Shown here: piece by piece, positions 21,245-36,701 of the stretch
How the letters are laid out: every line of letters starts with the position of its first letter
Numbering within the stretch: position 1 is the stretch's first letter
Program-made: the position numbers and the translations under genes
Notes under the pieces: generated by a model
Told to the model about the DNA's origin: nothing
The model's input: only the letters and a program-made list of their open reading frames with translations
The model's database searches: none
Source of the DNA: Candidatus Thorarchaeota archaeon
GTDB taxonomy: Archaea; Asgardarchaeota; Thorarchaeia; Thorarchaeales; Thorarchaeaceae
Direction: 5' to 3'
NCBI GenBank assembly: GCA_048884785.1
Contig: JBHLQM010000013.1
Location: forward strand, 1-52,379
DNA length: 52,379 nucleotides

Positions 21245-22111
21245 TTAGGGGTTATTTGCTATGATAGAGATACGCTCAATATAACTCTGAATTTTCTCGG
21301 TTTGTTCAAGTCTTTGTGCATGCTCTAGCGCTTCGGAATAATGCACACGGACTCTATCCTCCACCTCTACCCCAATGAGTTCATCTACGAGTGTCATTAG
21401 AGCGTAAAGGTGGACCCTCAGGGCTCCCTCAGTTAGTGTACCGATATCGACCTTCCACTCCCTGAACTTCTCTAGGTGGGTGATGTTACTTCTCACTAGG
21501 CTGCTATCATATTGTATGGCACCATGACCCGGAACAAGTGCAATCCAATCCTTTTGAAGATAGGAGTTAAGCGATTTGATATACGAGTCAAAGTTCAGAT
21601 GATTGACATATGGGATATCTGCTTCAACATTATCACCAACAAACAGGACTTTATCCTGATGGTCATAGCAACTTGATGAATCGATGGTATGGCCGGGGGT
21701 ATGATAGAACTCGACGCCATCGTCAGCGTAGATCAACTTCGTATCAAACAAAAGATTGGGCGGAATGAGAGTGACTTCTCCTTCGACATATTCGCCCCAT
21801 TTTTTCAGGTCATTCTCTCCATCCTCAAGCACTCTTTTCCTAGATGATGAATGAGCTGCAATTAATGAGGCCGTAAAGTAACAGTTTCCCCAGATATGGT
21901 CCCAATCTGCATGCGAGTTGAAAACAACAATCGGTCTATTTGCTGCTCCTTCTCTCTCCAATAGCTTCGAAACCTCCTGCATTGGCAGTGGACCTAGGTA
22001 CGTATCACAGACATATACTCTGTTTTCTCCGATTATGATATGAGTAGTTGTGGGCATATCTTCGCCAAAGGCTATTCTAATGTTCCTCTCGCCTAACTTC
22101 TCAATCTGCAT
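21245..22111 (-). CDS. MBL-fold metallo-hydrolase
   Basis: NSHADWDHIWGN, PGHT, FVGD, VPGHG. Confidence 0.9.
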   Translation of the reverse strand: MQIEKLGERNIRIAFGEDMPTTTHIIIGENRVYVCDTYLGPLPMQEVSKLLEREGAANRPIVVFNSHADWDHIWGNCYFTASLIAAHSSSRKRVLEDGENDLKKWGEYVEGEVTLIPPNLLFDTKLIYADDGVEFYHTPGHTIDSSSCYDHQDKVLFVGDNVEADIPYVNHLNFDSYIKSLNSYLQKDWIALVPGHGAIQYDSSLVRSNITHLEKFREWKVDIGTLTEGALRVHLYALMTLVDELIGVEVEDRVRVHYSEALEHAQRLEQTEKIQSYIERISIIANNP

Positions 22112-22400: not shown

Positions 22401-24389
22401 CTAATCTGGACGTTTGTAAATCCTCAGTTTGAAGAAGGAGTAACTCATCAACAGCATGATTACACTCAGCAGTGTGACCGGTGAAACAACTGTAATCCAG
22501 TGTTCTCTCGGGTCCCAGTCAATGCCATCGGGAATTCCATCCTGGTCCGTATCTGCGCTCGTTGGCGACATACAATACTCAACTTCGTAGGCATCACTCC
22601 ATCCATCTGCGTCTGTGTCTGAGGTGAATGGGGACAGGAGGTTGAGTATTTCAAAGAGGTCACTCAGAGAGTCTTCATCTGTATCTGGCGAGAGTGGGTT
22701 GAGACCCATCTCATACTCAAAACCATCTTCAAGTCCGTCTCGATCCGAATCATCGCTGAGTGGGTCTGTTCCGATAACATAAACTTCGAGGTAGTCATCG
22801 AGACCGTCCGAATCCGTATCAGCAGATATGGGATTAGTGCCCAATTCCGCCTCAGTCCCATCTCCAATCCCATCGTTGTCAGTATCATTGGACACAAGGC
22901 TTGAGCCCCATGTGAACTCGTTTAGGTCGGATGCACCATCTCCATCAGAGTCACTCGAAGCAGGATTCGTTCCTAGTTCAAGTTCAAAATCGTCATCTAG
23001 TCCATCTCTGTCAGAATCCCGAAGATATGGAGAAATACCTAATGAAACCTCAACTGGATCAAATAGTGTATCACCATCGGCGTCCTCAAGTGCAGTGATT
23101 ATGAGTGAATAGTTGGTGGGATTTGAACCAACGTTTGTAACATTAAAGGAATAGCTGCCGTAGCTGAGGACAAGGTATTTCATGACAATTACGCCGTCAT
23201 CCTCGGTTCTTTGATAGAGGACTTGGCCTGATGTGGGATTGAAAATAACAGCATTGATGGTTGTATCGGCATCCCATGATATTGTAGCATTAAGGTACCC
23301 TACTGTCGTAACGGTAGTTCTTACTACTGCACTCTCGTCGACTTGAAGTACATCGCTTCGATATCTCTCAGCCGCAACACCTGTTCCCAGAAAGCCAATA
23401 TAGGCAACAACTGCAGCAGTGGATGCAACAAGCTCAGCGGCCTTGGCGAAGCTGAAGTCCGGGTTACTCCATAAGTCGTTTGCAGTGCTTGATATTGGAT
23501 CATAGATGTAACCTTGTGAGATATGCATAGCGGGTCGTCCTACCATCCACATCTCATGAGCTAATGACCTCTCTGCAATTTCAAGATCCATGACACGCTG
23601 AATGAAACCATTGCCGTAATTTGATGAATACTGCACCAAGAAATCTGGTATCCAGAGTTCATCATGAAATAGGCCCTCCTGCGAATCACTTCTGATGGAT
23701 ATTTTGAGGCCATAGAGGTATCCTGACCGATGGAAGAGAATTCTATCAAATGCGATGCCTGAGAATGTATCTATCTCATTCTCATCGAGCCACTGAACAA
23801 ATGCTCTTCCCCCATAGTCAATATCCTCGTCAAGATGTACACCATTTAACAGCACATAGTAAACATCATATGCGAGAGAATAATTATGAAGCAATCGAGC
23901 CAGTTCTAGTACAGCTGCAACACTCGCTCCTGCATCATTTGCACCGGGTGTCGTTTCTGAATCAATTATCCCTGATAGAGCAAATGCTGGTCTAGGACTA
24001 GGTCCTGTACCCTCTTTAATTGCCAGAAGACTCTGATATTCAGTAACCTGAGAGAATGCAAGTTCATTCTGCGTGTTGGTCTTTAGTGTGGCATTTGCCC
24101 ACGCCCAGGCATCAATCAGATTCTGACTTGGTCCTTCATCCCATATCCTAGAGGGATAATCTTCGCAGAGGTCTCTTGTATAATTACCGATATTATCTAT
24201 AGATTTTGCAGACCAAATTTCCTCAAAGAGTTCTGTAGCATTGAAGTATAGTTGGTCAGAGGGAACTGCTCTGGATTGAAGTACACCTTGGCTGAAATAA
24301 ATGCCGCCACCAGAGGCAATAATTGATTGTCCGAGAAGCAACGAGGTAATTAGGAGAATGGATGCGCCTCTGAACCTAATACTTCTCAT
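22401..24389 (-). CDS. Surface protein: degenerate M28 peptidase domain + PPC-like domain + TSP3-type Ca-binding repeats + TM anchor (paralogue B)
   Basis: Signal peptide from ATG 24389 (MRSIRFRGASILL...), SGIIDS...PGANDAGASVAAVLELARLL, nine DxDxD repeats, C-terminal TM plus KLRIYKR. Confidence 0.8.
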   Translation of the reverse strand: MRSIRFRGASILLITSLLLGQSIIASGGGIYFSQGVLQSRAVPSDQLYFNATELFEEIWSAKSIDNIGNYTRDLCEDYPSRIWDEGPSQNLIDAWAWANATLKTNTQNELAFSQVTEYQSLLAIKEGTGPSPRPAFALSGIIDSETTPGANDAGASVAAVLELARLLHNYSLAYDVYYVLLNGVHLDEDIDYGGRAFVQWLDENEIDTFSGIAFDRILFHRSGYLYGLKISIRSDSQEGLFHDELWIPDFLVQYSSNYGNGFIQRVMDLEIAERSLAHEMWMVGRPAMHISQGYIYDPISSTANDLWSNPDFSFAKAAELVASTAAVVAYIGFLGTGVAAERYRSDVLQVDESAVVRTTVTTVGYLNATISWDADTTINAVIFNPTSGQVLYQRTEDDGVIVMKYLVLSYGSYSFNVTNVGSNPTNYSLIITALEDADGDTLFDPVEVSLGISPYLRDSDRDGLDDDFELELGTNPASSDSDGDGASDLNEFTWGSSLVSNDTDNDGIGDGTEAELGTNPISADTDSDGLDDYLEVYVIGTDPLSDDSDRDGLEDGFEYEMGLNPLSPDTDEDSLSDLFEILNLLSPFTSDTDADGWSDAYEVEYCMSPTSADTDQDGIPDGIDWDPREHWITVVSPVTLLSVIMLLMSYSFFKLRIYKRPD
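22518..23084 (-). repeat. Coding tandem repeat: 9 x ~22-aa TSP3-type units
   Basis: DxDxDGLxDxxExxxGTxPxxx units, ~66-nt period. Confidence 0.9.
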
Positions 24390-24454
24390 ATTTATTTTCA
24401 GCATCCCATTCCGATTAAATACATTATTGACAAAGCAGCCACTTTTTGTCATGG

Positions 24455-26458
24455 TTATCCCCCTCGCAGATATGCTCGGCGTTTGAGAAGTAAGACCAAT
24501 AGAATGATGACTGAAATCACTCCCAAACCAGCAAAGGGTATTATGTTGATCCAATGTTCCCTCGGTGCCCAGTCAATGGCATCTGGTATTCCATCTCGAT
24601 CTGTATCAGGATCAAAAGGCATGAGACAATGCTCAATCTCGTATGAATCACTGAGACCATCTTGGTCTGTATCAGCTGAGAGGGGGTTGAGTGCGTTAAG
24701 GGCCTCAAAGAGGTCACTGAGCCCATCCTCATCAGAATCTGGCGAGAGCGGATTTGTACCAAGGTTAACCTCTTCAGAGTCTTCGAGTCCATCTCGGTCA
24801 GAATCAGGAGATAGCGGATCTGTTCCTATCTCAATCTCGATATTATCCATGAGCTGGTCTTGGTCAGTATCGCTATCTGTCGGACTCAGACCATTAGCAA
24901 TCTCAAACCCATCAAAAAGGGTGTCGCCATCAGAATCTTGAATGAGTGGGTCACTTCCATATTGCACCTCAATGCCATCAAATGCTCCATCCAGGTCCGA
25001 GTCTTGGATGCGGGGGTGAGTACCATATACTATCTCCAAATCGTCACTCAGAAAGTCCGAGTCTGTATCAGACGATAGGCTATCAGTTCCATATATGAAC
25101 TCGTGATAGTCGTCCAAGGTATCCCAATCAAGGTCTTGATAGTGTGCAAAAGAATACGTTATAGTTGCAGCATTGTCGCCAATGTTTTCAACACGAAGTG
25201 TATATGACCCTCGAATAGGGGGGAGATAGCTTATGTGGATCAAATTGTCGTTCTCAACTCTCTGATAGACGAGCTGACCTGCTGGGCCACGAATTTGAGC
25301 ATCAAGGGTTGTATTTGTACCCCAAGCAAGTGTAACATTTACATAAGACTGTCCTGTAAGAGCCATAGGTGTCTGAAACGTGGCATTGACTGCAAGGCCC
25401 GCGGACCCAGTGAGTACAGGAGCATCACCTCTTGCCAAAACCCCGATGGTGGCAACAAACGACGCAGCGACTCCTGCTGCTTCAGCGATATTGCCATAGT
25501 CATAGAACCAGCGGTCCCAACTGTCTTCCATTGTTTGCCAAAGGTAATCATCATAGTACTGCCCTAAGCTGATACTGGCAATTCCCCTCCGGCAACTGGA
25601 GTACGCTCCGGATTCAGTCCATAGGCCTCCAACGGTGACATTAGAAACCACGAGGTCGTTTGTCCCTGACTTGGTAGTAATCTGCGTCGCTATTTCCTTT
25701 GCCCATCGTATAGGATCAAAGGGAAATGCAAGGTAATCATAATCCATTCTGATCTTATCGCCATTCGGATCTAATGTTGTATAGAGAAGCCGATTAAACC
25801 AAATCACAGCCGCTGGACGCCTACCCATTTCTTCAAGCTCATCAAGCAGGTATTCAAATCCCAGATTTCCGTAATCCTGGGCCCCGTATCCTCCTATGAT
25901 TGTGTTAGAGAGGACAAAATACACATCATTGGTTAGGTTGAATCCATGAAGGATGTTGGCACATTCTAATACTGCAGCAGCCGTAGAGGCAAATCCATTT
26001 GCGCCTTGAGTATATCTGCTTGCAATGGTCCCTCCAATAATAATGGGGGCGAGATTGGAGTCAGAACCCTCCTTTATCGCAACAAGATTAAGCTGTTCTG
26101 TCCTGAAGGTGAAATATATCTCATTGCCAGTATAGGCCTTGATGGTGTCATTGACAAAAGCCCAGGCTGCGCGTAATTGATTTGATCCATCCTTGTCAAT
26201 TGGAAACCAGACCCTCTGACCATATGTCGTGGCTAGAGTGTGAACAAGGTTTTCTGTCCTAGTTTCATCAACAATTGAAAAAACTGTATCCCAGATTGTT
26301 TCCATGGAGAATGTATCTGCCGGAGCCATTCGTACACTCGGTTTTAGAACTTCATGCGATAATTCCGTAGTACTGATTATTCCTCCGCCAGGACTCTGAA
26401 GAGTGGTGGATAGAATAAAAACCAGGAATATGCATGAATTAACTAGGCTCCGTTTCAT
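24455..26458 (-). CDS. Surface protein: degenerate M28 peptidase domain + PPC-like domain + TSP3-type repeats + TM anchor (paralogue A)
   Basis: Signal peptide, NLVAIKEG...IIIGGTIAS...GANGFASTAAAVLE, nine DxDxD repeats, TM plus KRR. Confidence 0.8.
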   Translation of the reverse strand: MKRSLVNSCIFLVFILSTTLQSPGGGIISTTELSHEVLKPSVRMAPADTFSMETIWDTVFSIVDETRTENLVHTLATTYGQRVWFPIDKDGSNQLRAAWAFVNDTIKAYTGNEIYFTFRTEQLNLVAIKEGSDSNLAPIIIGGTIASRYTQGANGFASTAAAVLECANILHGFNLTNDVYFVLSNTIIGGYGAQDYGNLGFEYLLDELEEMGRRPAAVIWFNRLLYTTLDPNGDKIRMDYDYLAFPFDPIRWAKEIATQITTKSGTNDLVVSNVTVGGLWTESGAYSSCRRGIASISLGQYYDDYLWQTMEDSWDRWFYDYGNIAEAAGVAASFVATIGVLARGDAPVLTGSAGLAVNATFQTPMALTGQSYVNVTLAWGTNTTLDAQIRGPAGQLVYQRVENDNLIHISYLPPIRGSYTLRVENIGDNAATITYSFAHYQDLDWDTLDDYHEFIYGTDSLSSDTDSDFLSDDLEIVYGTHPRIQDSDLDGAFDGIEVQYGSDPLIQDSDGDTLFDGFEIANGLSPTDSDTDQDQLMDNIEIEIGTDPLSPDSDRDGLEDSEEVNLGTNPLSPDSDEDGLSDLFEALNALNPLSADTDQDGLSDSYEIEHCLMPFDPDTDRDGIPDAIDWAPREHWINIIPFAGLGVISVIILLVLLLKRRAYLRGG
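24572..25135 (-). repeat. Coding tandem repeat: 9 x 22-aa TSP3-type units
   Basis: DSDRDGLEDSEEVNLGTNPLSP-like units, 66-nt period. Confidence 0.9.
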
Positions 26459-26506
26459 AGGTTGGAGAGTCCATCGAACTCCAGTTATATGTTGCGAAAG
26501 GCGCTA

Positions 26507-27010
26507 TCATAAATCTGCGATTTGATTGATGTCAATTGATGATTGCTTTACGATATCTACAAGCCGAGTGATATTCGCGTTGGAAATTATTGGAATATCC
26601 TTCTTTGTTGTATCTAGTGATGTTCCTTCCCAGATTACGATTGCCTTCACATCTCTTGGTAGAACATCTACCTCCTGTGATTTCTCACCCACGCACCAAA
26701 ACTTGGGCACTTCGAGTTCCTTGAATCCTTCGAGCAAAAGAAAATCTGCTGAGAGGGACTGTGTCAAATCCCTAATCTTGATTCGTTTGTTATGCCAGAC
26801 AGTTGTTGTATTTGGACCCAAAAGGACCGTCGGGGTCGCTCCGGCTTCGCTATGACGCCATGTGTCGGTACCTTCGGGGGCTTTTATGTCTTCCATTGAA
26901 TTCTTGATACTAACCACCGAGAGTCCCTCTGAAGTCAATTGCTGGATTATTTGTTCAAGTAGGAAGGTTTTTCCAGAAAATGAGAATCCTGATACTGCAA
27001 ATACGCGCAT
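26507..27010 (-). CDS. mobB: Molybdopterin-guanine dinucleotide biosynthesis protein B
   Basis: VSGFSFSGKT P-loop, EGTDTWRHSEAGA, DFLLLEGFK..VPK. Confidence 0.85.
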   Translation of the reverse strand: MRVFAVSGFSFSGKTFLLEQIIQQLTSEGLSVVSIKNSMEDIKAPEGTDTWRHSEAGATPTVLLGPNTTTVWHNKRIKIRDLTQSLSADFLLLEGFKELEVPKFWCVGEKSQEVDVLPRDVKAIVIWEGTSLDTTKKDIPIISNANITRLVDIVKQSSIDINQIADL

Positions 27011-27157
27011 GATTGCATCGTGTCAGGTCAATCGCGAAGGTTTTTGGTGTTTTCGATACTCCGAGAGGTAGCTTTACATATGGAACAAGTTGGTTGCTGC
27101 TGTCGCAACCTTAAAAATTGCCATTTGATGGATAGCATTTAGCTGGAGACATTCCAC

Positions 27158-27937
27158 TTGGCGCTAGAAAAGGAACCTGCAGTAGTCTGCCACGAGGTGT
27201 ATCGGGAGTTCGAGGATGGTACAAGAGTCATTAAGGTCCTTAGAGGTACTGATCTTATTGTTCGACGCGGTGAATTTGTTGCAATCGTTGGTGCATCCGG
27301 ATCAGGGAAAACCACTTTGCTGAATCTTATAGGAGGTCTTGACAGACCAACATCAGGAAGCATCCTTGTGGACAATACTGAAATCACATCTCTCAATGAT
27401 GACGAAATGTCAGAAATGCGGCGTCACAAAATTGGAGTTCTCTTTCAGGACCAACACCTTCTGCCAATTTTCACAGCGATAGAAAATGTACAGGTTCCCA
27501 TGCTTCTGGACGAAGTGAGGGCGCAGAAGCGTCATGAGAAGGCAATGAAACTTCTGGCTGCTGTTGGTGTTGACCACCGAGCACACCATATGCCTCATGA
27601 GCTCTCTGGCGGAATGCGGTCAAGAGTTGCTCTGGCGCGAGCTCTAGCTAATGACCCAATTGTCCTGCTATGTGATGAGCCAACAGGCGACCTCGACCAT
27701 AAAACAGGAGGTGAGGTCATTCGACTCATGAGAAACCTTGCCAAGAAAGAGAACCGCGCAGTGATTACCGTTACACACGATCCTGAAACTGCAAAAATGG
27801 CCGATCGAATTCTACTTTTGCGTGATGGAAAGCTTGTAGATGAGATGATTGGTGAATTCTTTAGGGCCAGTGGGGTTGACATGGAATCTAAGTCTGTTGA
27901 TGAAACCAAACCCGATGATGTTCCCACGGCGGGGTGA
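27158..27937 (+). CDS. ABC transporter ATP-binding protein, LolD/MacB family
   Basis: GASGSGKT, LSGGMR, LLCDEPTGDLD, VTHD. Confidence 0.93.
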   Translation: MALEKEPAVVCHEVYREFEDGTRVIKVLRGTDLIVRRGEFVAIVGASGSGKTTLLNLIGGLDRPTSGSILVDNTEITSLNDDEMSEMRRHKIGVLFQDQHLLPIFTAIENVQVPMLLDEVRAQKRHEKAMKLLAAVGVDHRAHHMPHELSGGMRSRVALARALANDPIVLLCDEPTGDLDHKTGGEVIRLMRNLAKKENRAVITVTHDPETAKMADRILLLRDGKLVDEMIGEFFRASGVDMESKSVDETKPDDVPTAG

Positions 27938-27941
27938 TTAG

Positions 27942-30830
27942 TTGGGGAAGAAGACAAAGAACGGCAAACAACTTCCAGGAAATCGCCTCTATGCTTTCTC
28001 ATATGCTGTAAGCTCCATGAGGGCATATCCCTTCAGAGCCCTTAGTCTAGCTTTAACACTCAGTCTTGGAGTTTCTCTCATCGGATCTGTACTTATATGG
28101 GCAGATACAGGTGTTCAAGTCAGTGTCGATGATTATTTTGATAATAACGCATTTCAGATGCTCTTGAAGAATCCCGCTGGACAAACACCGGCACTAGCTT
28201 CTGCGCAGACATACATGACCAACAGTCCGTTGATTGATTCAGCATACCGGGTGAACTCGACTGTTGGATTAGTATTTGGAACACAACTGCCTGACGATAC
28301 AGAATATGGGATAAATCAGCCGCTGTATACAGATGGAATGAAAGACTGCGAGGTAATAGTTGTCAGTAACGAGTTTCTTGATATCGCTAAAACACAATTC
28401 AGGATTGAAGGAGATTTTCAGCTAAATCCTGGTGAAACTCTTGTTTCAACACAATTTGTAAACTATGTGTATGAAGTGTTTGGTCTTACTCTAACCATCA
28501 ATTCAACCCTAGACGTGGAGGTGTTGACACGCAGGCCAACCGGACAAACTGGACTTCTTGAGGATTTGGGTCGCACAAGCATGAAATCACTGAGAATTGT
28601 TGGTATCTATGAGATTGAAGGATACAACTCTCTGATAGAAATTGCCTTTGAATCAATGATGCGAAATAATTACGTCTATATCCATTACTACCAGCCTGTT
28701 TTGGGAATTCGTGACAGCATCATGGTCCTTCCGAACGAATTTCCCTCCTCTGCCCTGTCACAGACTGGATTCTTCGGACCTCGTTCTTTCCTTCGTGCGT
28801 CCAGTCAGAATCTTATTGCAGCCGGCGTTGACTCAATGGACGAGAATCTCTTGACCCTAAAAGCCAGAGTTGACGAGGGCTATGATGTAACAGTTGAAGG
28901 CTTGGGAGAAATACTATATCTTCAGAGCATTGTCGATACGTATGTAGAAACCATGCCTCTCGTACTTCTCAATCTGCCCATCTTCATTTTAGCACTTTTC
29001 CTCTCAGTGTTTGCGGCAGATACTTTCATGGCCACTAGAAATATTGAAGTCAGTGCTTTGAGGTCAAAAGGATCGAGCTCCAATCAGGTCTATGGAATTT
29101 TCTTTGCGGAGTCTGTTGTTATTGCGGCATTTAGTACAATTGCAGGAGTTATTCTCAGTATTCTCTTTGCAGCATTGATACCCTCTGCCACGGGTTTTAT
29201 GATGTTTGACTGGGAGATGTACAACTTCTTTCTAGCTAATACAGTTTTGAAACCAGAATCAATAGTGATGTCAATCCTTCTATGCATAGTTCCACCACTG
29301 CTCTTCATTCTGAACTCAGCTAGAAAGGCTGCAATGACTGAAATTGGCATGCAGCTAATGGAGGTTTCAGAACCAATTTCGCAAGGCGGAGAGGCGTACG
29401 GATTCACTATTGGGGCCTCTATAGTCCTACTGGCAATGGTTGTCGGTTCAGTGCTATTCCTTCCTTCAAATCCAATCATGCTTTTGCTTGAGCTTGGCCT
29501 TGGCACTGCTGCGTGGTTCTTTATGGCCTATAATGGATCTCGATTCTCAAGAGTCGGGTTCGCAAGAATAACATCAAAGATGTCCTTTGTACTTGGTGAG
29601 AAAAACCTAATATCTGCAGGAAACCTCAGAATGAGAAAGGGCCGAATTGTACCCTTAATGGTTGTTCTAGCTCTAACAATGTCTTCCACAATTGCATTTA
29701 CTGTTCAGGCTGATAGCTTTAAGGCAGACCTGGACAAAGAGATTCGTTACGCAGTTGGTGCGGATCTTCGTGTTAGCACCACGCCTAGACCTTTTAGTTT
29801 CAATGAAACCATTGAGGAATATCCTGGAGTAAATAGAGCGACTCCAATTCTTAGAACTTGGGGGGGCATAGGTACAGAACGCGTCACGCTTGCAGGCATT
29901 GATGCAATTGAGTATTCGTTGATTGGTAATTTTGATGATTCCAGTTTTCCTGGGCAGGAAGCAAGCTTTATCCTATCAAGACTCGCAGCAACTCCGGATG
30001 GTATTTTACTCAGTCAATATCACGCTAACAGATGGAACAAATCAATCGGCGATTCTATAAATCTAAACGTTGGAGGACGGCTCTCTTCAGTCCTTATCAC
30101 ATTCACAGTTGTGGGCATTGTATATAGCTCACCCGGGTTTGGCTATGCTTCTGCAGAGGATATTCCGCCTGCGCGATTGGGAGCTGGCTTTGGCTTTCAG
30201 GTTGGTTATTCTGGGCTGGCTTTGGCAAATATTGATTATGTATCTGAATTCACAGATATCTCATCAGCTACCATGTTCCTTGCTGATTTGGTATGCGTCA
30301 CAAATCAGGAGATGGTTCTCCGTGCCCTTCGTGATATTACTGGTGTTTCGGCAACCACTCCGGAAACATTCGATTTGACAGGCTTTTCGTTTGGTACTGC
30401 CTTGTTTCTAAGTACTATAGAAGGTCTTTTCTCAATTGGTTTTGCGATGTCATTAATCCTCAGCATGTTTGCCCTTACACTCTTTTTGGGGTCAATTGTT
30501 CGGGAGAGGAAGCGAGATTATGCTATACTGCGTGCAGTAGGAGGTTCGAAGCAGCAAATAGTGAGAGTAGTTCTATCAGAATTTACAGGAATTGTGTTTG
30601 CATCACTTACTCTCAGTCTTGTTCTAGGTACTCTATTTGGCTATGTAATGAGTACAATCATCTTTTCCATGAGTCCTTTTGCACGAACACTTGCAGCCTT
30701 TATTACATTCCCAATCGGTTTCCTCACAATAGTTCTGTTGGTAGAGATAATTGCGATGATTGCTGGTGCCTACATACCTGCCAAGGAGGCTTCAAAGACT
30801 GATCCTGCGATTGTGTTACGAAATCTATGA
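27942..30830 (+). CDS. FtsX/MacB-like ABC permease (duplicated architecture), subunit 1
   Basis: Two large extracytoplasmic domains; RNIEVSALRSKGSS and ERKRDYAILRAVGGS coupling motifs; VGADLRV; PAKEASKTDPAIVLR. Confidence 0.9.
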   Translation: MGKKTKNGKQLPGNRLYAFSYAVSSMRAYPFRALSLALTLSLGVSLIGSVLIWADTGVQVSVDDYFDNNAFQMLLKNPAGQTPALASAQTYMTNSPLIDSAYRVNSTVGLVFGTQLPDDTEYGINQPLYTDGMKDCEVIVVSNEFLDIAKTQFRIEGDFQLNPGETLVSTQFVNYVYEVFGLTLTINSTLDVEVLTRRPTGQTGLLEDLGRTSMKSLRIVGIYEIEGYNSLIEIAFESMMRNNYVYIHYYQPVLGIRDSIMVLPNEFPSSALSQTGFFGPRSFLRASSQNLIAAGVDSMDENLLTLKARVDEGYDVTVEGLGEILYLQSIVDTYVETMPLVLLNLPIFILALFLSVFAADTFMATRNIEVSALRSKGSSSNQVYGIFFAESVVIAAFSTIAGVILSILFAALIPSATGFMMFDWEMYNFFLANTVLKPESIVMSILLCIVPPLLFILNSARKAAMTEIGMQLMEVSEPISQGGEAYGFTIGASIVLLAMVVGSVLFLPSNPIMLLLELGLGTAAWFFMAYNGSRFSRVGFARITSKMSFVLGEKNLISAGNLRMRKGRIVPLMVVLALTMSSTIAFTVQADSFKADLDKEIRYAVGADLRVSTTPRPFSFNETIEEYPGVNRATPILRTWGGIGTERVTLAGIDAIEYSLIGNFDDSSFPGQEASFILSRLAATPDGILLSQYHANRWNKSIGDSINLNVGGRLSSVLITFTVVGIVYSSPGFGYASAEDIPPARLGAGFGFQVGYSGLALANIDYVSEFTDISSATMFLADLVCVTNQEMVLRALRDITGVSATTPETFDLTGFSFGTALFLSTIEGLFSIGFAMSLILSMFALTLFLGSIVRERKRDYAILRAVGGSKQQIVRVVLSEFTGIVFASLTLSLVLGTLFGYVMSTIIFSMSPFARTLAAFITFPIGFLTIVLLVEIIAMIAGAYIPAKEASKTDPAIVLRNL

Positions 30831-30839
30831 GGAACAAAG

Positions 30840-33749
30840 ATGATAGAAGAGAGGAGATCAATCCAACTCAAAGGAAGTCCATTATGGGCACTAAGCTATG
30901 CCATGACATCGTTGCGAAACTATCCAATTCGAAATATGGGAATAGCTGTGGTATTGGCCATTGGTATTGCCCTTCCTACTACTGTTTTTGTTTGGGCCGA
31001 TACTGGGACGAATATGGTGGTGCACGATTACTTTGATGAGTCTACTTATCAAATGAGTCTACAGCTAAAACCATCAGCGCTCTACGATTGGAGAATGCTG
31101 GATGATATTATTGCCACTGCGCAGAACAACCCTTTTACACAATATGTTCACAGAGTTGTTTCGACTGTCGGAATACTGTCAAATGAAACATTGCCCTTCT
31201 GGAATACATATGATATTAATGGACTGAATTACATATATGGCATCAAGGATACTCGTACAATCTTTGTGGACAACCATCTTCTTGGCAACTGGTCACGGGA
31301 GTTCGATTATCAGGGCAAATTCGAATTGGAGCTTGGCGAGGTTTTGGTCTCGCAGGGATTTATCGACTACACCTATGAAGTTCATGGTATACTGCTCAAG
31401 ATTGGCGATCAGATTGATTTTGATATACTAGCACATGCGCAGCTCACAGCTGGACGAAAACCGTGGCAAGAACTGCATGTAGTTCGCTCTGAGAACCTCA
31501 CAATCGCAGGGGTCTATCAAGCGAAACTCATCAGGTCCCAACTAGTCGATGCCTTTCCAAGCATAATGCGGAAGAATTGGGATCCGCTGGCGCTTGAGAG
31601 TGATCCTGTTCTCGGAATAGACGATTCAGTAATGATTCGTATTGATGATGTCACACAAGAAGTAGTTGACGAGATTGGATCTTGGGGCTATTTCAAATTC
31701 GCAATACTAATCAGAGCATCTGAATCTGCTCTCCTACAGGCAGGGGCAGTAAATATTGGAGATAATCTGATTACATTCAAAACTCAATACGAAGAAACCT
31801 ATCCTTCCTATCAAGTGAGTGGACTACGCGATATCTGGAGGCTTGAAGCTGCAATAAACACCTTTCTTCAGAGTCAAATACTAACTGTCGTGGCATTTCC
31901 GGTGTTGATAATGAGCCTTATGTTGACAGTTTTCACATCTGAAACTTCGATCTCTAGAAGAAAGGGAGAAATCAGTGCACTGAGGTCAAAGGGAGCATCG
32001 TTTAACCAAGTTTTTGCCACATTTATGTGGGAGTCACTATTTCTCAGTCTTCTTGGACTTGCTCTAGGTATAGGCATATCCTTTATTCTAGGTCCTTTAA
32101 TTGGAGCATCAATCAACCTATTCCTGTTTGACTTCAATCTCTATGGTCAGTTTATTACGAATCTGACAATTTCACCCCTTGCATTAATAATCGCCACTGC
32201 TATCGCCATGTATCTCCCGGCTGCCTACTTGCTACATGTTGCTCGAAGGATTGATGTTTCAGAGGTTGGTCAACCCATCTCTGAACAGGCTGAGGAAGGC
32301 GCTGAGATGGGCAGCGTCTGGCCATATGCACTTGGACTTGGTGCTGTATTGTCTACTCTTATTGCATTGCCAGTAATCTTCATTCCAACAGGAATCCTGG
32401 CTATAGGTCAGATACTAATATCGACTCTCCTGCTCTTTGTGGCGTCATATCTTGGATCTCGAACAATGCGACTCGTAACGGCCAAGCTTTCCGGCAGTAC
32501 GAACTTCCTTCTTGGAGAAAAATCGCTCTACCTGAGCCAAAGCCTGAGAAAACGAAAGGGACAATTCATTCCCCTTCTAGTCATTCTCACAATAACACTT
32601 ACTACAACTACCATGATGCTTGTCCAAACGGCAAGTTTTGAAGCCACAATGCAAAACGAATTGGCATATTCGATTGGAGCGGATATGAGGATTGAGTCGG
32701 ATCCCAAACCCTTGAACTTCAATGAAACCTTAAGACATTATCCTGGAGTGATTTCATCCACACCAGTGATTGAAACATGGGCACAAGTTGGCACGAATAG
32801 ATTCTTCCTCGAGGCTGTAGATGCCCTGAACTATTTGAGAATTGGGTCGTTCTCAGATGACAGCTTTTTTGGAAATGACTCAACATCAGTTTTAACGGCT
32901 CTCAACGAGCAACCGAATGGGATTGTTATAAGCAAATATTATTCGGAGCTTTGGAACAAAACAGTAGGCAATAGCATCTTGGTCTACTTCGGAGGTGCAA
33001 ACGGAACACGTATCGTTTCATTCGAGATAGTAGGGATTGTCCTGAGTGCGCCTGGATTTGGTGTAGCGTCGACTGAAGATCTCACAGGTGCTTCCTTTGC
33101 CTCACAATTTGGATTCCAGGTTGGCCAGGGTGGATTTGCGCTTGTAAATCTGCGATTCATCTCTGAGATTGGCTCACTCCATATGTCTGACCTAACTTTT
33201 GTTGATGCCACCTGCTACGCCGATATACAACCAGTCATTGTATCGCTTCAACAGGAAAAGAACCTCAATGTCTATACTCCTCAAACATTTGATATAAAGA
33301 CTCAATCCGTTTCAATACGGCTGTTTCTATCAGGAATCCAGGGCTTAACGACAATCTCATACCTCCTTTGTGCAGCAATGGGTCTGTCGGCAATAGCTCT
33401 CTTCCTAGGCTCTGCCGTTCTTGAGCGACGTTCCGAATACGCACTATTCAGAGCGCTGGGTGGCACTCAGAGGCAAGTGATCTCGATGGTCTTTGGAGAA
33501 TTCGCGGGGTCAGTGGTCGCAGCCATCTCGATTAGTGTCATTTTGGGCTTCTTCTTTGGGTACGCACTGAGCATCATGACTTTTGGTATCTCGCCGTTCA
33601 CACCAGTACTGCCTGAGGTCCTGGCGTATCCATTCATGATGATGCTAGTGACGATTGCTGCTGAGAGCGCGGTTATGCTTGCATCCTGTTACATTCCTGC
33701 AAAGCGCGCAGGCGCAGTGAATCCTGCAACCGCATTAAGAAACTTGTGA
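30840..33749 (+). CDS. FtsX/MacB-like ABC permease (duplicated architecture), subunit 2
   Basis: Paralogue of the upstream gene: RRKGEISALRSKGAS, ERRSEYALFRALGGT, IGADMRI, PAKRAGAVNPATALR. Confidence 0.9.
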   Translation: MIEERRSIQLKGSPLWALSYAMTSLRNYPIRNMGIAVVLAIGIALPTTVFVWADTGTNMVVHDYFDESTYQMSLQLKPSALYDWRMLDDIIATAQNNPFTQYVHRVVSTVGILSNETLPFWNTYDINGLNYIYGIKDTRTIFVDNHLLGNWSREFDYQGKFELELGEVLVSQGFIDYTYEVHGILLKIGDQIDFDILAHAQLTAGRKPWQELHVVRSENLTIAGVYQAKLIRSQLVDAFPSIMRKNWDPLALESDPVLGIDDSVMIRIDDVTQEVVDEIGSWGYFKFAILIRASESALLQAGAVNIGDNLITFKTQYEETYPSYQVSGLRDIWRLEAAINTFLQSQILTVVAFPVLIMSLMLTVFTSETSISRRKGEISALRSKGASFNQVFATFMWESLFLSLLGLALGIGISFILGPLIGASINLFLFDFNLYGQFITNLTISPLALIIATAIAMYLPAAYLLHVARRIDVSEVGQPISEQAEEGAEMGSVWPYALGLGAVLSTLIALPVIFIPTGILAIGQILISTLLLFVASYLGSRTMRLVTAKLSGSTNFLLGEKSLYLSQSLRKRKGQFIPLLVILTITLTTTTMMLVQTASFEATMQNELAYSIGADMRIESDPKPLNFNETLRHYPGVISSTPVIETWAQVGTNRFFLEAVDALNYLRIGSFSDDSFFGNDSTSVLTALNEQPNGIVISKYYSELWNKTVGNSILVYFGGANGTRIVSFEIVGIVLSAPGFGVASTEDLTGASFASQFGFQVGQGGFALVNLRFISEIGSLHMSDLTFVDATCYADIQPVIVSLQQEKNLNVYTPQTFDIKTQSVSIRLFLSGIQGLTTISYLLCAAMGLSAIALFLGSAVLERRSEYALFRALGGTQRQVISMVFGEFAGSVVAAISISVILGFFFGYALSIMTFGISPFTPVLPEVLAYPFMMMLVTIAAESAVMLASCYIPAKRAGAVNPATALRNL

Positions 33750-33755
33750 GGGACA

Positions 33756-33813
33756 TGCTATGATGAAAACTAAGACCAGTGCGCAGCTCACAACTCTTAT
33801 TTGCGACATAGCA
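33756..33813 (+). other. Intra-operon stem-loop
   Basis: TGCTATG/CATAGCA 7-bp closing stem plus AAACTAAGA/TCTTATTT inner stem, just upstream of a GGAGG SD. Confidence 0.45.
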
Positions 33814-33826
33814 AAATTGGAGGTTA

Positions 33827-34849
33827 GTGACTAAGATGGTCAGTGCCGAATCGCTTGATTTGTATGGGGCATACCCTGATGATGTTGTGGTAAGCGTCGA
33901 GAACGTGTACAAGATATTCAAGACGCACGAACTCGAAGTTGTAGCCCTTAGTGGCGTGTCCCTTCAGATTCTCGAAGGCAAAATAATGTGCATGGTTGGT
34001 CCCAGCGGGTCTGGAAAGACCACATTGACAAACATAATCGGCGGCATAACAAAGGCTACTGTTGGAAAGGTCTACTGGGCGAATCTTCGTTCCGACATCA
34101 CCAAGCTGAGCGAACGGATACTGACAGAGGCGCGAAGGAGTTTCATTGGTTTCATCTTTCAGGTGAATAACCTCCTTCCACATCTAAATGCTTGGCAGAA
34201 TGTAGAGCTTGCAGCAAGGATTGCAGGAGTGCCGAAGAAGGTTCGGCAGGAACGCGTTGATCGGCTCATTAAGCTTGTTGGACTTGAAGAACGAAAGCGT
34301 AACAAAGCCACAACTCTCTCAGGTGGTGAACGTTCACGAGTAGCTATTGCAAGCGCTCTGGTCAACTTAATCGATACAGAAGGCAAAGGGCTTGTGCTTT
34401 GTGATGAGCCCACGGGAGACCTCGACCCGGAAACTGCACAACGTATCCTTGAGCTCTTCAAAGAGCTCAATGAAACCCTTGGAACATCATTCTTCATCGT
34501 TACACACAGTCAGCAGGTCGCCTCAATGGCAGACGTGACTGTGGAGATTCGTGATGGTATCGTTTCAGGATTCCACCAGACTGGCATCGACCTTGACGAG
34601 CTTGGCGGGACACGAATTGTACGGCTCGATAACAACTATCGACTTCCGATGCCTACTGACCTTCTCGAGCTTGCTGGGAATCCATCTGAGTTCAGCATAA
34701 GCTATGACAACAATCGATTCATCCTTGTACCTCAGACAGGTGAAGTTGTTGATGCCATGAGAGTTCAGAAGACGCGAACATGTAGAGTCTGTGGTAACGA
34801 AATCGCTCAAGGCAAGTTCATATGTTCTAACTGCGGCAGCACAGTATAG
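33827..34849 (+). CDS. ABC ATP-binding protein (LolD/MacB family) with C-terminal AbrB-like domain and Zn ribbon
   Basis: GPSGSGKT, LSGGER, VLCDEPTGDLD, VTHS; tail VRLDNNYRLPMP... and CRVC...CSNC. Confidence 0.9.
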   Translation: MTKMVSAESLDLYGAYPDDVVVSVENVYKIFKTHELEVVALSGVSLQILEGKIMCMVGPSGSGKTTLTNIIGGITKATVGKVYWANLRSDITKLSERILTEARRSFIGFIFQVNNLLPHLNAWQNVELAARIAGVPKKVRQERVDRLIKLVGLEERKRNKATTLSGGERSRVAIASALVNLIDTEGKGLVLCDEPTGDLDPETAQRILELFKELNETLGTSFFIVTHSQQVASMADVTVEIRDGIVSGFHQTGIDLDELGGTRIVRLDNNYRLPMPTDLLELAGNPSEFSISYDNNRFILVPQTGEVVDAMRVQKTRTCRVCGNEIAQGKFICSNCGSTV

Positions 34850-34868
34850 AAGCTGTGGTGTCGAGAGG

Positions 34869-36701
34869 ATGGACAGGATACAGTCTGCAGTATTTGTCCT
34901 ACTGCTATTCATATTCATAGGCAGTCTGATGTCCCTGCTATTCTCTCTTGCTTTTCAGTATCCCATAGCAAGAACTGTACCAATGACAGAGGATCAATAT
35001 GACACATCATTCTGGGATTTGACTACAGCAACAACAGATCCTCTCAACGTCATGAACATGTCTGATGAGACTAGCACCATTCAGACCGATGAAGGCCTTG
35101 TTCAGCTAAAGAGTTGGCAGTTTTCTTACTACAGTGAAACATTCCATGACATTGAGATACGAATCAACTCAATTCTTGTCAGACCTGCAACTCTTGTGTC
35201 CGAAGCTCCTGCAATCCTGGTTCTGCATGGGTATGGTAGCAGCTCCATGGGCTTCATAGATTTCATCAATCAGATTGCATCTGCTGGTTACTATGTATTG
35301 GGGATAGATGCTCCTGGTGCCGGTATATCTACTCCATATCCCCCGTTGAATCCCTATACGTTCTTCGATGTATCTGATGGGCCAGAGTCATCACATATTT
35401 TTCATTCTGTGTGGTCAGCAGCCAGGGCAATCACATTCCTTGAGTCATTGCCCTACGTAAACTCTACAATACTGCTCGGTGGCTCGATGGGCGCACTTGA
35501 AACATTCATACTCTCCGCTATAGATTCGCGTGTGGATGGTTCGATCCCGATGATTGCTGGAGGCAATCTTCATGAGTCCATTTATTCTGGGTCTCTCTTG
35601 AATAGTCTAATCAATCCTAACTATGAGATTGGATCCGATGAGCTTGAGGACTTGCAGAGGTGGTTTGACCCCATAGCCTATGCTAGACTACTCACCCGTC
35701 CTATCTTTATGCTCTATGGGACGAACGACCCATTCTTTGTCCTTTCTGGCATTCAGCAGACAGTGGATGCGATAGAAGCCCCTCTCACGCTAAGCATTCG
35801 ACCAAATTCAGGTCATGTGATCGATATGTCATGGAGTAGGCTGGTGGCTAGATGGCTGGATGAAAACTTTCGGGGTGGTATTGCCTATCCGAGAGTTAGC
35901 ACCCGAGCGAGTCAATTGCTCACGCTTCAAGGTTGGACTCTACATATATCTGCAAACTCTTCTGAGAATGTGCCACTCCAAGTATTCTGGCGTACGGCTG
36001 ACCCCGGATCCGTCTGGGCGACCACCCCAATGAGAAGAGTTGGTGATTCCTATGAGATTGACATCACTCCTCTGCATCTCGGTAAAGTTACCTATTTTGT
36101 CTGCGCGGTCGAAATGGAATACATCTGGGCATCAACAAAAATCTCTGAGGGAAGTGGCGGCAGCTTCTTCATGCCAGCCCTTGCGGCAATATCAGGGATA
36201 GGAGTATACCTGATATCTGGACTGACTGGATGGCGTTTGACGAAGGCACTCATTATCAGAGAATTTCCCATGTTTACTGGATTGATAATGATCGCACTTG
36301 GATTTCTCTTGCCCTTCTACGGTATCACTGGACGTGTTCAATTATCAATCCTTGAATTCGTTGAAGTCTACGGGATGATTCTAGGATTGGGTGGCTGGTT
36401 TTTATCTCTGACTCTACTTGTTTTGTGCTATATTATAGCCGTTTCTGCTCTGCGTCATCAGTTATCATTCAGACTAGTATTGCTTGTATGGTTTCCACTC
36501 CTTGTCATTATCACTATAGCATACATCTTTTTTGCAGGAGTCTTCGCAGTCGCAGGGGGCTTGACATCAGTGTACAGTGGCATTGGAGCATTCCTCCTCC
36601 TTTTTGCAGTTCCTGTTATGATGATTCTAGAGTCTTTCTTTAACAAGATCGTTTTTAGTTCTACGAATATCCTTCCGGTTCCGGAGAGTCTACCCTCCTA
36701 A
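34869..36701 (+). CDS. Membrane-bound alpha/beta hydrolase (acetylxylan esterase/peptidase S9-like)
   Basis: LHGYG, GGSMG nucleophile, GTND, SGH triad; N-terminal TM, Ig-like linker and ~5 C-terminal TMs. Confidence 0.82.
   Translation: MDRIQSAVFVLLLFIFIGSLMSLLFSLAFQYPIARTVPMTEDQYDTSFWDLTTATTDPLNVMNMSDETSTIQTDEGLVQLKSWQFSYYSETFHDIEIRINSILVRPATLVSEAPAILVLHGYGSSSMGFIDFINQIASAGYYVLGIDAPGAGISTPYPPLNPYTFFDVSDGPESSHIFHSVWSAARAITFLESLPYVNSTILLGGSMGALETFILSAIDSRVDGSIPMIAGGNLHESIYSGSLLNSLINPNYEIGSDELEDLQRWFDPIAYARLLTRPIFMLYGTNDPFFVLSGIQQTVDAIEAPLTLSIRPNSGHVIDMSWSRLVARWLDENFRGGIAYPRVSTRASQLLTLQGWTLHISANSSENVPLQVFWRTADPGSVWATTPMRRVGDSYEIDITPLHLGKVTYFVCAVEMEYIWASTKISEGSGGSFFMPALAAISGIGVYLISGLTGWRLTKALIIREFPMFTGLIMIALGFLLPFYGITGRVQLSILEFVEVYGMILGLGGWFLSLTLLVLCYIIAVSALRHQLSFRLVLLVWFPLLVIITIAYIFFAGVFAVAGGLTSVYSGIGAFLLLFAVPVMMILESFFNKIVFSSTNILPVPESLPS

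Follow-up and report, generated by a model that had tools for sequence, protein, structure and literature searches.

To our knowledge, nearly all known type VII ABC systems are bacterial, and YbbAP, structurally the closest relative of the machine described here, was reportedly characterised only in 2025. These systems are typically paired with an extracytoplasmic partner (PMC12646458). In YbbAP-TesA, a 10-TM duplicated permease, YbbP, with ectodomains between TM1-2 and TM7-8, has a divergently encoded hydrolase as its partner (PMC12646458). The BceAB-type permease, also a 10-TM duplicated protein, is thought to be monomeric and to act with two ATPase subunits (PMC8277102). In FtsEX, the ABC controls EnvC, a catalytically dead LytM/M23 protein.

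The locus compared here with these systems lies at positions 22401-36701 of the window, i.e., the whole analysed stretch of 52,379 nucleotides from a Thorarchaeota (Asgard archaeon) chromosome. Relatives were searched in 87 genomes, all of one order, in which g-numbers denote genera and G-numbers denote genomes. With a probability of about 0.6, three separable modules form a mosaic here, inside a block whose gene order is shared across the family, and the functional unit is a four-gene ABC operon. A single large envelope system, coupling the ABC machine to a pair of surface proteins and an esterase, is unproven.

The ABC unit of the plus strand

The plus strand begins with ATPase1 (27158..27937; 259 aa, TTG start), followed after 4 nt by permease1, a duplicated FtsX permease (27942..30830; 962 aa). 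Its paralogue permease2 (30840..33749; 969 aa) comes next and, after 77 nt, ATPase2 (33827..34849; 340 aa). Both ATPases are LolD/MacB-type nucleotide-binding subunits. The gene order, A1-P1 and then P2-A2, is equally compatible with two separate homodimeric transporters. The initial annotation had placed the ORFs of the locus correctly, including the LRNL ends of both permeases, and the pairs that it called paralogous are true paralogues, with identities of 35% for the permeases (full length), 36% for the ATPases and 37% for the surface proteins (E 2e-109).

The same annotation had proposed a type VII (MacB/FtsX) ABC system with two ATPases and two permeases, and the comparison of relatives agrees. 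The four genes were found together in every examined family locus that has them. In the sister-family genome G037 the unit is reordered as P-A1-A2-P, with overlapping A1 and A2 genes. ATPase2, by whose presence the ABC unit was scored, was a single-copy gene in 75/87 genomes of the order. These results support the plus-strand arm as a doubled type VII ABC system, conserved as a four-gene unit.

In Pfam search, two FtsX stretches were found in each permease (E about 3e-20). The AF2 model of permease1 (pLDDT 84.9, pTM 0.76) showed 10 TM helices in two FtsX modules, with ectodomains at TM1-2 and TM7-8, both flanked by long helices. The top Foldseek match of this model was E. coli YbbP over the full length (9GE6_A, E 3e-21; 9GE7_A was also a full-length top match), and LolE/C, BceB, MacB and HrtB came next. 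The ectodomains matched the isolated periplasmic domains of LolC, LolE and MacB (5UDF, 5NAA, 3FTJ) with a probability of 1.00.

E. coli YbbAP-TesA (PDB 9GE6-9GE8) shares with this locus a duplicated FtsX fold of 10 TM helices and two Porter/Sabre ectodomains, LolD/YbbA-like ATPases, a serine hydrolase gene adjoining the transporter, and the lack of a membrane-fusion or outer-membrane partner. However, YbbP and the Thorarchaeota permeases have only 12% sequence identity, and the latter are ~160 residues longer. In place of YbbA2-YbbP, this locus encodes a pair of paralogous permeases and a pair of distinct ATPases, of which one carries a Zn-ribbon tail, and the host is archaeal, with ether lipids in its only membrane. 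Orthology to YbbP and YbbA was rejected because the NCBIfam scores were under the equivalog cut-offs, i.e., 20-21 bits against 999 for the permeases (NF041854) and 192 and 136 bits against 336 for the ATPases (NF007879). The permeases are YbbP-like in fold only.

The BceAB and ADOP systems have a 10-TM duplicated permease as well, and ADOP-style paralogues occur without ATPases, but the NCBIfam duplicated-permease model of ADOP gave a weak match (64 bits vs a cut-off of 622), and BceB, with only one ectodomain, passes its signal to a histidine kinase. FtsX also differs: it has 4 TM helices and a single ectodomain, and it forms dimers.

The ABC_tran domain was found in both ATPases (Pfam; ATPase1 E 6.5e-36), in which the Walker A, LSGG signature, Walker B glutamate and H-loop are intact. 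Their best NCBIfam matches were LolD, MacB, DevA, YbbA and FtsE, all under equivalog cut-offs. ATPase2 has a C-terminal tail of ~90 aa, with a weak MraZ/AbrB-like segment and a C4 Zn ribbon, whereas ATPase1 has no tail. The tail is conserved in G037, and in a sister-family orthologue it is kept at 49% identity.

The 147-bp divergent gap of the initial annotation exists (27011..27157), but it borders mobB and not a surface-protein gene. It contains an inverted repeat GTTGC-N7-GCAAC (27093-27109), a TATA-like TTAAAAAT (27111-27118) and, before the TTG codon at which ATPase1 starts, a GGAG (27145-27148). The palindrome-plus-TATA element was conserved upstream of ATPase1 at 15 loci of 13 genera, and this composite motif had a single occurrence in the 3.6-Mb genome. 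Judged from these motifs, the four-gene ABC operon has its own conserved putative promoter and operator.

The surface-protein arm and its distribution

The minus-strand arm starts with a gene of a mobB-like P-loop protein (26507..27010), 48 nt before surfB (24455..26458; 667 aa), and ends with surfA (22401..24389; 662 aa counted from an internal ATG). The first gene was identified by Pfam MobB (1.3e-23) and TIGR00176 (87.8 bits vs a cut-off of 76.2). It was present in most genera and was not found in g2, g7 and g12; in g5 and g10 its slot holds another ORF without a MobB match.

SurfA is composed of a signal peptide, an M28-like domain, a beta-sandwich, ~9 TSP3 Ca-binding repeats, a DWDPREHW motif, a C-terminal TM and a basic tail, and surfB has the same architecture. 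PF18884 (TSP3_bac) was above the cut-off in both proteins. The Asp columns of the DxDxDG-type repeats are invariant and in register over 25 sequences, and the repeat region matched lanmodulin and EF-hand chains. The Peptidase_M28 (PF04389) match of surfA was weak (24 bits vs a cut-off of 21.3), and a profile of 25 orthologues matched PDB structures of M28 aminopeptidases (E 6e-6 to 3e-5).

The two-zinc site of M28 (His, Asp, Glu, Asp/Glu, His) and its catalytic Glu were incomplete in the aligned surfA and surfB orthologues. In the 25-orthologue alignment, surfA has I in place of the His and N-G in place of the EE pair, with the GAND Asp retained, and surfB has substitutions at the His, at the bridging Asp and at the EE pair. 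Compared with YwaD and related enzymes, the HxD His is I or T, EE is N-x, and only the surfA clade retains the bridging Asp of GAND. Because the metal ligands and the EE pair are replaced, surfA and surfB are, on the alignment, M28-like pseudo-peptidases.

In having extracytoplasmic pseudo-peptidases encoded beside a type VII ABC, the locus resembles FtsEX-EnvC. EnvC, however, is a soluble coiled-coil/LytM protein, whereas surfA and surfB belong to another clan and carry a TSP3 stalk and a membrane anchor, and their link to the ABC is unproven. The murein amidase targets of FtsEX-EnvC are absent in archaea.

It may be considered that the locus encodes an integrated '2+2+2(+1)' envelope machine, in which the permeases act on the pseudo-M28/TSP3 pair, as FtsEX acts on EnvC, and the esterase modifies the same substrate. 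An extracytoplasmic partner would be typical of type VII systems (PMC12646458). The surface pair was found in 36/87 genomes of 13 genera, always together with the ABC unit (36/36), and a pair without the ABC unit was never found in the 87 genomes. The divergent two-arm arrangement is kept in 13 genera, and the two arms were never unlinked where both occur. In G019, which reads OGG-mobB<>hydrolase-Toprim, neither the surface pair nor the ABC unit is present, mobB is retained and the esterase sits in the same slot. This implies two deletions in one lineage, around the kept mobB.

Against this machine, the unrelated flanks, PriL-OGG and Toprim-ADH-OsmC-Mut7C, are equally syntenic across the family. 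Because these housekeeping genes keep the same order, the adjacency of the modules carries little information. The pair was absent from the two largest genera (0/45), i.e., 0/28 in g6 and 0/17 in g3, although ATPase2 was present in 27 g6 and 8 g3 genomes, which makes at least 35 genomes with the ABC unit and without the pair. The two arms are thus in part independently distributed in related genomes, which counts against the initial proposal, and they are linked wherever both exist. Since g3 and g6 are placed at the base of both permease clades, the surface pair looks like a single later insertion, and the mobB/pseudo-M28/TSP3 arm, a lineage-specific addition, was probably gained once. In addition, g12 and 3/4 g10 genomes have only surfA, and the ABC operator element was not found before the surface-protein genes.

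Evolutionary rates were compared by pairwise distances, with housekeeping distances regressed out. The N-domains of both surface proteins were correlated with the permease2 ectodomains (partial r 0.5-0.8, permutation p <= 0.01). However, the unrelated cytoplasmic Mut7-C gave 0.38-0.49, and the ATPase-permease and ATPase-ATPase pairs, which are expected to interact, gave about 0.1, so the test was non-discriminating. The rate correlation and the one co-loss are weak hints of coupling between the pair and the ABC unit.

The integrated machine is therefore considered unlikely. The pair, the ABC unit and the esterase each occur without another module, and for this reason the initial claim that the surface pair and the hydrolase are parts of one machine was not upheld; the three modules vary independently in the slot, and their adjacency is accounted for by inherited synteny. 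A fuller version is likewise doubtful. It would make the dead M28/TSP3 pair mechanically driven clients of the YbbP-like permeases, the esterase an optional client, and the ATPase2 tail a source of feedback on the palindromic operator. If it is true, the locus would be an archaeal counterpart of FtsEX-EnvC, with ATP-powered switching or release of Ca-stalked pseudo-peptidases at the Asgard cell surface. In the mosaic, the mobB/pseudo-M28/TSP3 arm could be either one of the machine's clients or a mere neighbour.

The membrane esterase and its possible tie to the ABC unit

The last gene encodes a membrane-anchored serine esterase of the alpha/beta hydrolase type (34869..36701; 610 aa), and its ATG at 34869 lies 19 nt after the ATPase2 stop, as annotated initially. 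AXE1 and PhoPQ_related matches were found in Pfam, of which AXE1 was borderline (22.1 bits vs 21). The protein consists of an N-terminal TM, an extracytoplasmic alpha/beta hydrolase domain, a beta-sandwich and a helical C-terminal membrane domain with about six helical segments (model residues 434-599).

In structural comparison of the AF2 model (pLDDT 89.4), the best folds were CE7 acetyl-xylan esterases and cephalosporin C deacetylase (target-normalised TM about 0.7), which share the Ser-Asp-His triad at a sequence identity of 15-19%. The CE7 enzymes differ from it in that the N-terminal anchor, the extra beta-sandwich and the C-terminal membrane domain are found here. The signatures of CE7 are GxSQG and HE. 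The nucleophile motif GGSMG and the His motif, i.e., SGHV here and PNxGH in the orthologue consensus, differ from them.

A closer analogue of YbbAP-TesA would be formed if the ABC unit and the CE7-like esterase were an obligate extraction-and-hydrolysis complex, to which the surface pair is irrelevant. YbbAP-TesA itself is a precedent. The esterase gene follows ATPase2 by 17-19 nt on the same strand in g1, g2, g7, g8, g9 and g12, the triad (Ser206, Asp287, His316) is invariant in 14 orthologues, and the catalytic domain is predicted from the model to face outward and to be membrane-tethered. Moreover, the permease paralogue at C17 is followed by an SBBP beta-propeller and a carboxylesterase. 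However, seven genera with the ABC unit and the surface pair yielded no esterase. In g3 and g6 it is encoded at another genomic site without a MacB-type transporter beside it, and in G019 it is kept without the ABC unit. Clusters of the same Pfam families and of comparable length (575-594 aa) exist in other archaeal phyla, i.e., Bathyarchaeota/Thermoproteota, and the predicted structure of the 594-aa cluster aligns over residues 14-587. TesA, besides, is a soluble SGNH enzyme, whereas the CE7-like enzyme here has its own membrane domain and is dispensable in many relatives. An obligate complex is thus quite unlikely. By analogy with YbbAP-TesA, it is still reasonable to regard the esterase, where present, as the most plausible extracytoplasmic partner.

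Proposed action of the ABC unit

Mechanotransmission, stoichiometry and any partner are proposed here by inference from the established gene set, folds, topology, conservation and presence/absence patterns. By homology with YbbAP, LolCDE, MacB and BceAB, the effect of binding and hydrolysing ATP in the cytoplasmic ATPases would be relayed to the ectodomains by the stalk helices. The permeases are YbbP-like pseudo-dimers, each with two Porter/Sabre-type ectodomains on helical stalks. On the outer side, an amphiphilic molecule, or one embedded in the membrane or anchored to it, would be extracted or passed on by the ectodomains. For stoichiometry, we infer as most likely one ATPase1/ATPase2 heterodimer per permease.

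Permeases without ATPases were also found in this genome, at C2, C17 and C79/C93, and these orphans derive from the permease2 lineage. The operon of one relative has three permeases, and in another relative two orphan permeases lie in tandem at a different site. Permease1, permease2 and the orphan paralogues may be alternative membrane modules that differ in specificity and use a common ATPase pair. The propeller beside the C17 permease is conserved in G016, and in G037 a YbbP-like permease adjoins a gene of a BNR-like protein. Because other YbbP-like permeases adjoin secreted-protein genes in this way, an extracytoplasmic partner encoded nearby is a recurring theme.

Two independent transporters placed tail to tail, (ATPase1)2-permease1 and (ATPase2)2-permease2, e.g., pumps of the Bce or MacB kind that serve detoxification or export and lack a dedicated protein partner, would suit the abutment of each ATPase gene on one permease gene, the single ATPase-permease pairs of this family in other lineages (G040, G047) and the YbbA homodimer of YbbAP, but are very unlikely, as the two kinds of ATPase are conserved together throughout the order, each in single copy, the adjacent overlapping ATPase genes of G037 lie between two permeases, and the orphan and extra permeases have no ATPases of their own.

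For the mosaic with its four-gene ABC operon, the main value is negative, i.e., a divergent order conserved within one family is no evidence for a common system if all of the surrounding genes are syntenic as well. The locus also brings the YbbP-like architecture to Asgard archaea, in an unusual form with two permeases, two different ATPases, a Zn-ribbon tail, a dedicated putative operator and an orphan permease family. The surface pair and the esterase are its two candidate extracytoplasmic partners. If one of them is confirmed, the role of mechanotransmission in cells bounded by only one membrane, made of ether lipids, would be revealed.

Gene content and predicted products

The locus is part of a 56-kb contig in an archaeal genome bin of 3.6 Mb (91% complete, 5.4% contamination). 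Two surface-protein genes, surfA (22401-24389, 662 aa) and surfB (24455-26458, 667 aa), were found on the minus strand, separated by 65 nt, and a mobB gene (26507-27010, minus strand) lies 48 nt from surfB. The plus strand carries the genes of ATPase1 (27158-27937), permease1 (27942-30830, 962 aa), permease2 (30840-33749, 969 aa), ATPase2 (33827-34849, 340 aa) and a hydrolase (34869-36701, 610 aa), with gaps of 4, 9, 77 and 19 nt, respectively. These ORFs are as described in the initial annotation, and the doubled components are genuine paralogues, with identities of 37% for surfA and surfB, 35% for the permeases and 36% for the ATPases. The divergent gap of 147 bp also exists, but it separates ATPase1 from mobB, which was left unmentioned in this finding of the initial annotation, and not from a surface-protein gene.

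Both ATPases have intact motifs. Their best matches were the LolD, MacB, DevA, YbbA and FtsE families, with every equivalog cut-off unreached. The tail of ATPase2 (34574-34849) consists of a MraZ/AbrB-like segment, a very weak match, and a C4 zinc ribbon, CxxC-x10-CxxC. The AlphaFold model of permease1, built with 41 aligned sequences (pLDDT 84.9, pTM 0.76), has ten TM helices, and its two ectodomains are inserted between TM1-2 and TM7-8. The top PDB match of the model was YbbP of E. coli, aligned over the full length (9GE6_A, E 3e-21), followed by LolE/C, BceB, MacB, HrtB, YtrF and the isolated periplasmic domains of LolC, LolE and MacB. YbbAP-TesA is described with the same topology (PMC12646458). 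These results support a type VII ABC machine whose components are doubled, as proposed, and narrow it to a YbbAP-like one. No paper joining Thorarchaeota and FtsX was found in the literature search.

In the hydrolase model (pLDDT 89.4), an N-terminal anchor precedes an alpha/beta domain, which is followed by a beta-sandwich and, at the C-terminus, by a helical membrane domain. The alpha/beta domain was most similar to CE7 acetyl esterases in predicted structure, and Ser206, Asp287 and His316 were invariant in 14 orthologues.

The products of surfA and surfB share one architecture. Each begins with a signal peptide and continues with an M28-like domain, a beta-sandwich and approximately nine TSP3 calcium-binding repeats, after which come a conserved DWxPREHW motif, one TM helix and a basic tail. 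The profile of 25 orthologues matched M28 aminopeptidases of known structure. However, in these orthologues the His of the HxD motif is replaced by I or T and the EE pair by N-x, whereas the bridging Asp is kept in the surfA clade only. Because the catalytic positions are replaced, the label of pseudo-peptidase is justified. The pre-TM DWxPREHW motif of the pair (22401-26458) was found in most of the 25 orthologues and in both paralogue clades, with REHW, QEHW, RNHW and other variants, and in no other ORF of at least 150 aa in the same genome. When the surface N-domain and the ATPase2 tail were used in word-based homologue searches, the named matches were from Thorarchaeota, save one ATPase labelled Hodarchaeota, and carried hypothetical or generic ABC annotations.

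An inverted repeat, GTTGC-N7-GCAAC, abutting a TTAAAAAT box was found at 27093-27118, approximately 40 nt before the ATPase1 start. This element was kept upstream of ATPase1 in 15 loci of 13 genera, and in genera g3 and g6 it was replaced by TGCTCAAAGCA-like repeats. The composite of palindrome and box occurs once in the whole 3.6-Mb genome. No second copy of the composite was found there, and a further bare palindrome that was inspected, on contig C14, is within coding DNA. The element is a putative operator of the ABC operon.

Presence and absence of the modules across the order

The comparison covered 60 relatives first and then 87 genomes of the order, and 35 loci were fetched from related genomes. 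The family-wide gene order was PriL-OGG-(MBL)-surfA-surfB-mobB, then, across the divergent gap, ATPase1-permease1-permease2-ATPase2-(hydrolase)-Toprim-ADH-OsmC-Mut7-C-amidohydrolase-PHP. The surface pair and the ABC operon were divergent neighbours wherever both shared a contig (13 genera). Conserved adjacency was rejected as a sign of function, since the flanking PriL, OGG, Toprim, ADH, OsmC and Mut7-C genes keep their arrangement as well. With gene order retained throughout this neighbourhood in the family, adjacency carries no functional information here, and the informative signal is presence or absence inside the fixed slot.

All three modules, i.e., pair, ABC unit and hydrolase, occupy the slot in genera g1, g2, g7, g8 and g9. 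In g4, g5, g10, g11, g13, g15 and g16 the slot holds the pair and the ABC unit, and the hydrolase was not found. In g12 and in three of the four g10 genomes, surfA is the only member of the pair. The mobB gene was not found in g2, g7 and g12, and in g5 and g10 it is replaced by an ORF that does not match MobB. The slot of g3 and g6 reads OGG-mobB, then divergently ATPase1-permease1-permease2-ATPase2-Toprim; the pair and the hydrolase are absent from it, and the hydrolase is located elsewhere in genomes G011, G023 and G032. The surface N-domain was found in none of 28 g6 genomes and none of 17 g3 genomes, against ATPase2 in 27 and 8 of them, respectively. Order-wide, ATPase2 was present in 75/87 genomes and the surface N-domain in 36/87, all 36 of which have ATPase2.

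Genera g3 and g6 were basal in the permease1 and permease2 clades alike in a permease tree rooted on outgroup genomes, and formed one clade in the flanking-marker tree. The surface pair thus seems to have been inserted once, next to a divergent mobB-ABC arrangement that already existed, and to have been inherited thereafter.

In genome G019 (g14, 91% complete), the slot holds OGG-mobB, then divergently hydrolase-Toprim. The pair and the ABC unit are both lost and the intervening mobB is kept, which indicates two deletions. The promoter region of this hydrolase has a different palindrome.

Two local rearrangements were also observed. In G035, the region directly upstream of ATPase1 lacks mobB, OGG and PriL and has a TnpB/Cas12f-like gene and an ORF of 1037 aa instead (L035:3302-5467), so that a rearrangement breakpoint lies in the divergent gap. 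In G016, a metallo-beta-lactamase-fold gene on the opposite strand (L029:3588-4445), with 35% identity to 21245-22111 of the window, lies between ATPase2 and permease2 and breaks the operon there.

Permease copies and possible extracytoplasmic partners

Several observations, among them the conserved element upstream of ATPase1, indicate that the four ABC genes form a unit. The same four gene types were found in the sister family (G037) in the order permease-ATPase1-ATPase2-permease, with the two ATPase genes overlapping. Its ATPase2 orthologue keeps the tail, with 49% identity over the full length. Across the family ATPase2 is single-copy (79-93% identity), and the number of permeases varies with no change in that of the ATPases. 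The operon of G020 has three (ATPase1-permease1-permease2-permease2'-ATPase2, L032:2010-12640), two orphans stand in tandem in G005 (L056:8040-14047), and permease2-derived orphans without ATPases are present on contigs C2, C17 and C79/C93 of the genome studied here. This fits one ATPase1/ATPase2 pair that would serve several alternative 10-TM permeases. Duplicated 10-TM permeases are thought to function singly, each together with two ATPase subunits (PMC8277102; PMC12646458).

Contig C79, of 12 kb, also encodes a bacterial-type NAD-dependent DNA ligase with LigA domains and BRCT (L043:8450-10573), flanked by a 2,229-aa TSP3-repeat protein and the orphan permease fragment. This ligase could be the result of horizontal transfer or of bin contamination (5.4%).

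On C17 (L042:5878-12181), the orphan permease2-like gene is followed by a secreted SBBP beta-propeller gene with overlapping stop and start codons, and then by a 597-aa carboxylesterase. The permease-propeller pair, with overlapping stop and start codons, was also found in G016, of another genus (L057:6645-11194, 28% identity), and a secreted BNR-like protein precedes the ABC operon in G037. Permeases of this kind thus repeatedly have an extracytoplasmic partner encoded in their vicinity, which is also seen in bacterial type VII systems (PMC12646458).

Relation of the surface pair and the esterase to the transporter

The pair was never found without the ABC unit. Genera g3 and g6 have the ABC unit without the pair, and the flanks are equally syntenic. 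Because the ABC unit is present in 16 of 17 genera, the constant company of the pair is weak evidence. The loss of both modules around a retained mobB in G019 and the recurrence of nearby extracytoplasmic partners also speak for a link. In the genome studied here, three further M28/TSP3 paralogues (C55, C51, C2) showed no adjacency to the three to four further permeases (C2, C17, C79/C93).

In the mirror-tree test, i.e., a partial Mantel test on pairwise distances with housekeeping distances regressed out, both surface N-domains correlated with the permease2 ectodomains (r 0.5-0.8, permutation p <= 0.01). However, the control Mut7-C, an unrelated cytoplasmic protein, gave r 0.38-0.49, whereas the ATPase-permease and ATPase-ATPase pairs, which are expected to interact, gave r of approximately 0.1. 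Therefore, the correlation is not discriminating as proof of coupling and was taken as a hint only in favour of a link. Ectodomain and TM divergence showed no clear difference in the pair-less lineages.

In six genera the esterase gene follows ATPase2 in the same orientation, at a distance of 17-19 nt. A machine that handles calcium-binding surface proteins with the help of the esterase is unsupported by the comparative data and is the less likely reading. In the most likely one, the core of the locus is a four-gene transporter that is conserved and works by mechanotransmission. The esterase would be its facultative partner, plausibly in physical contact with it, and the surface pair a lineage-specific neighbour.
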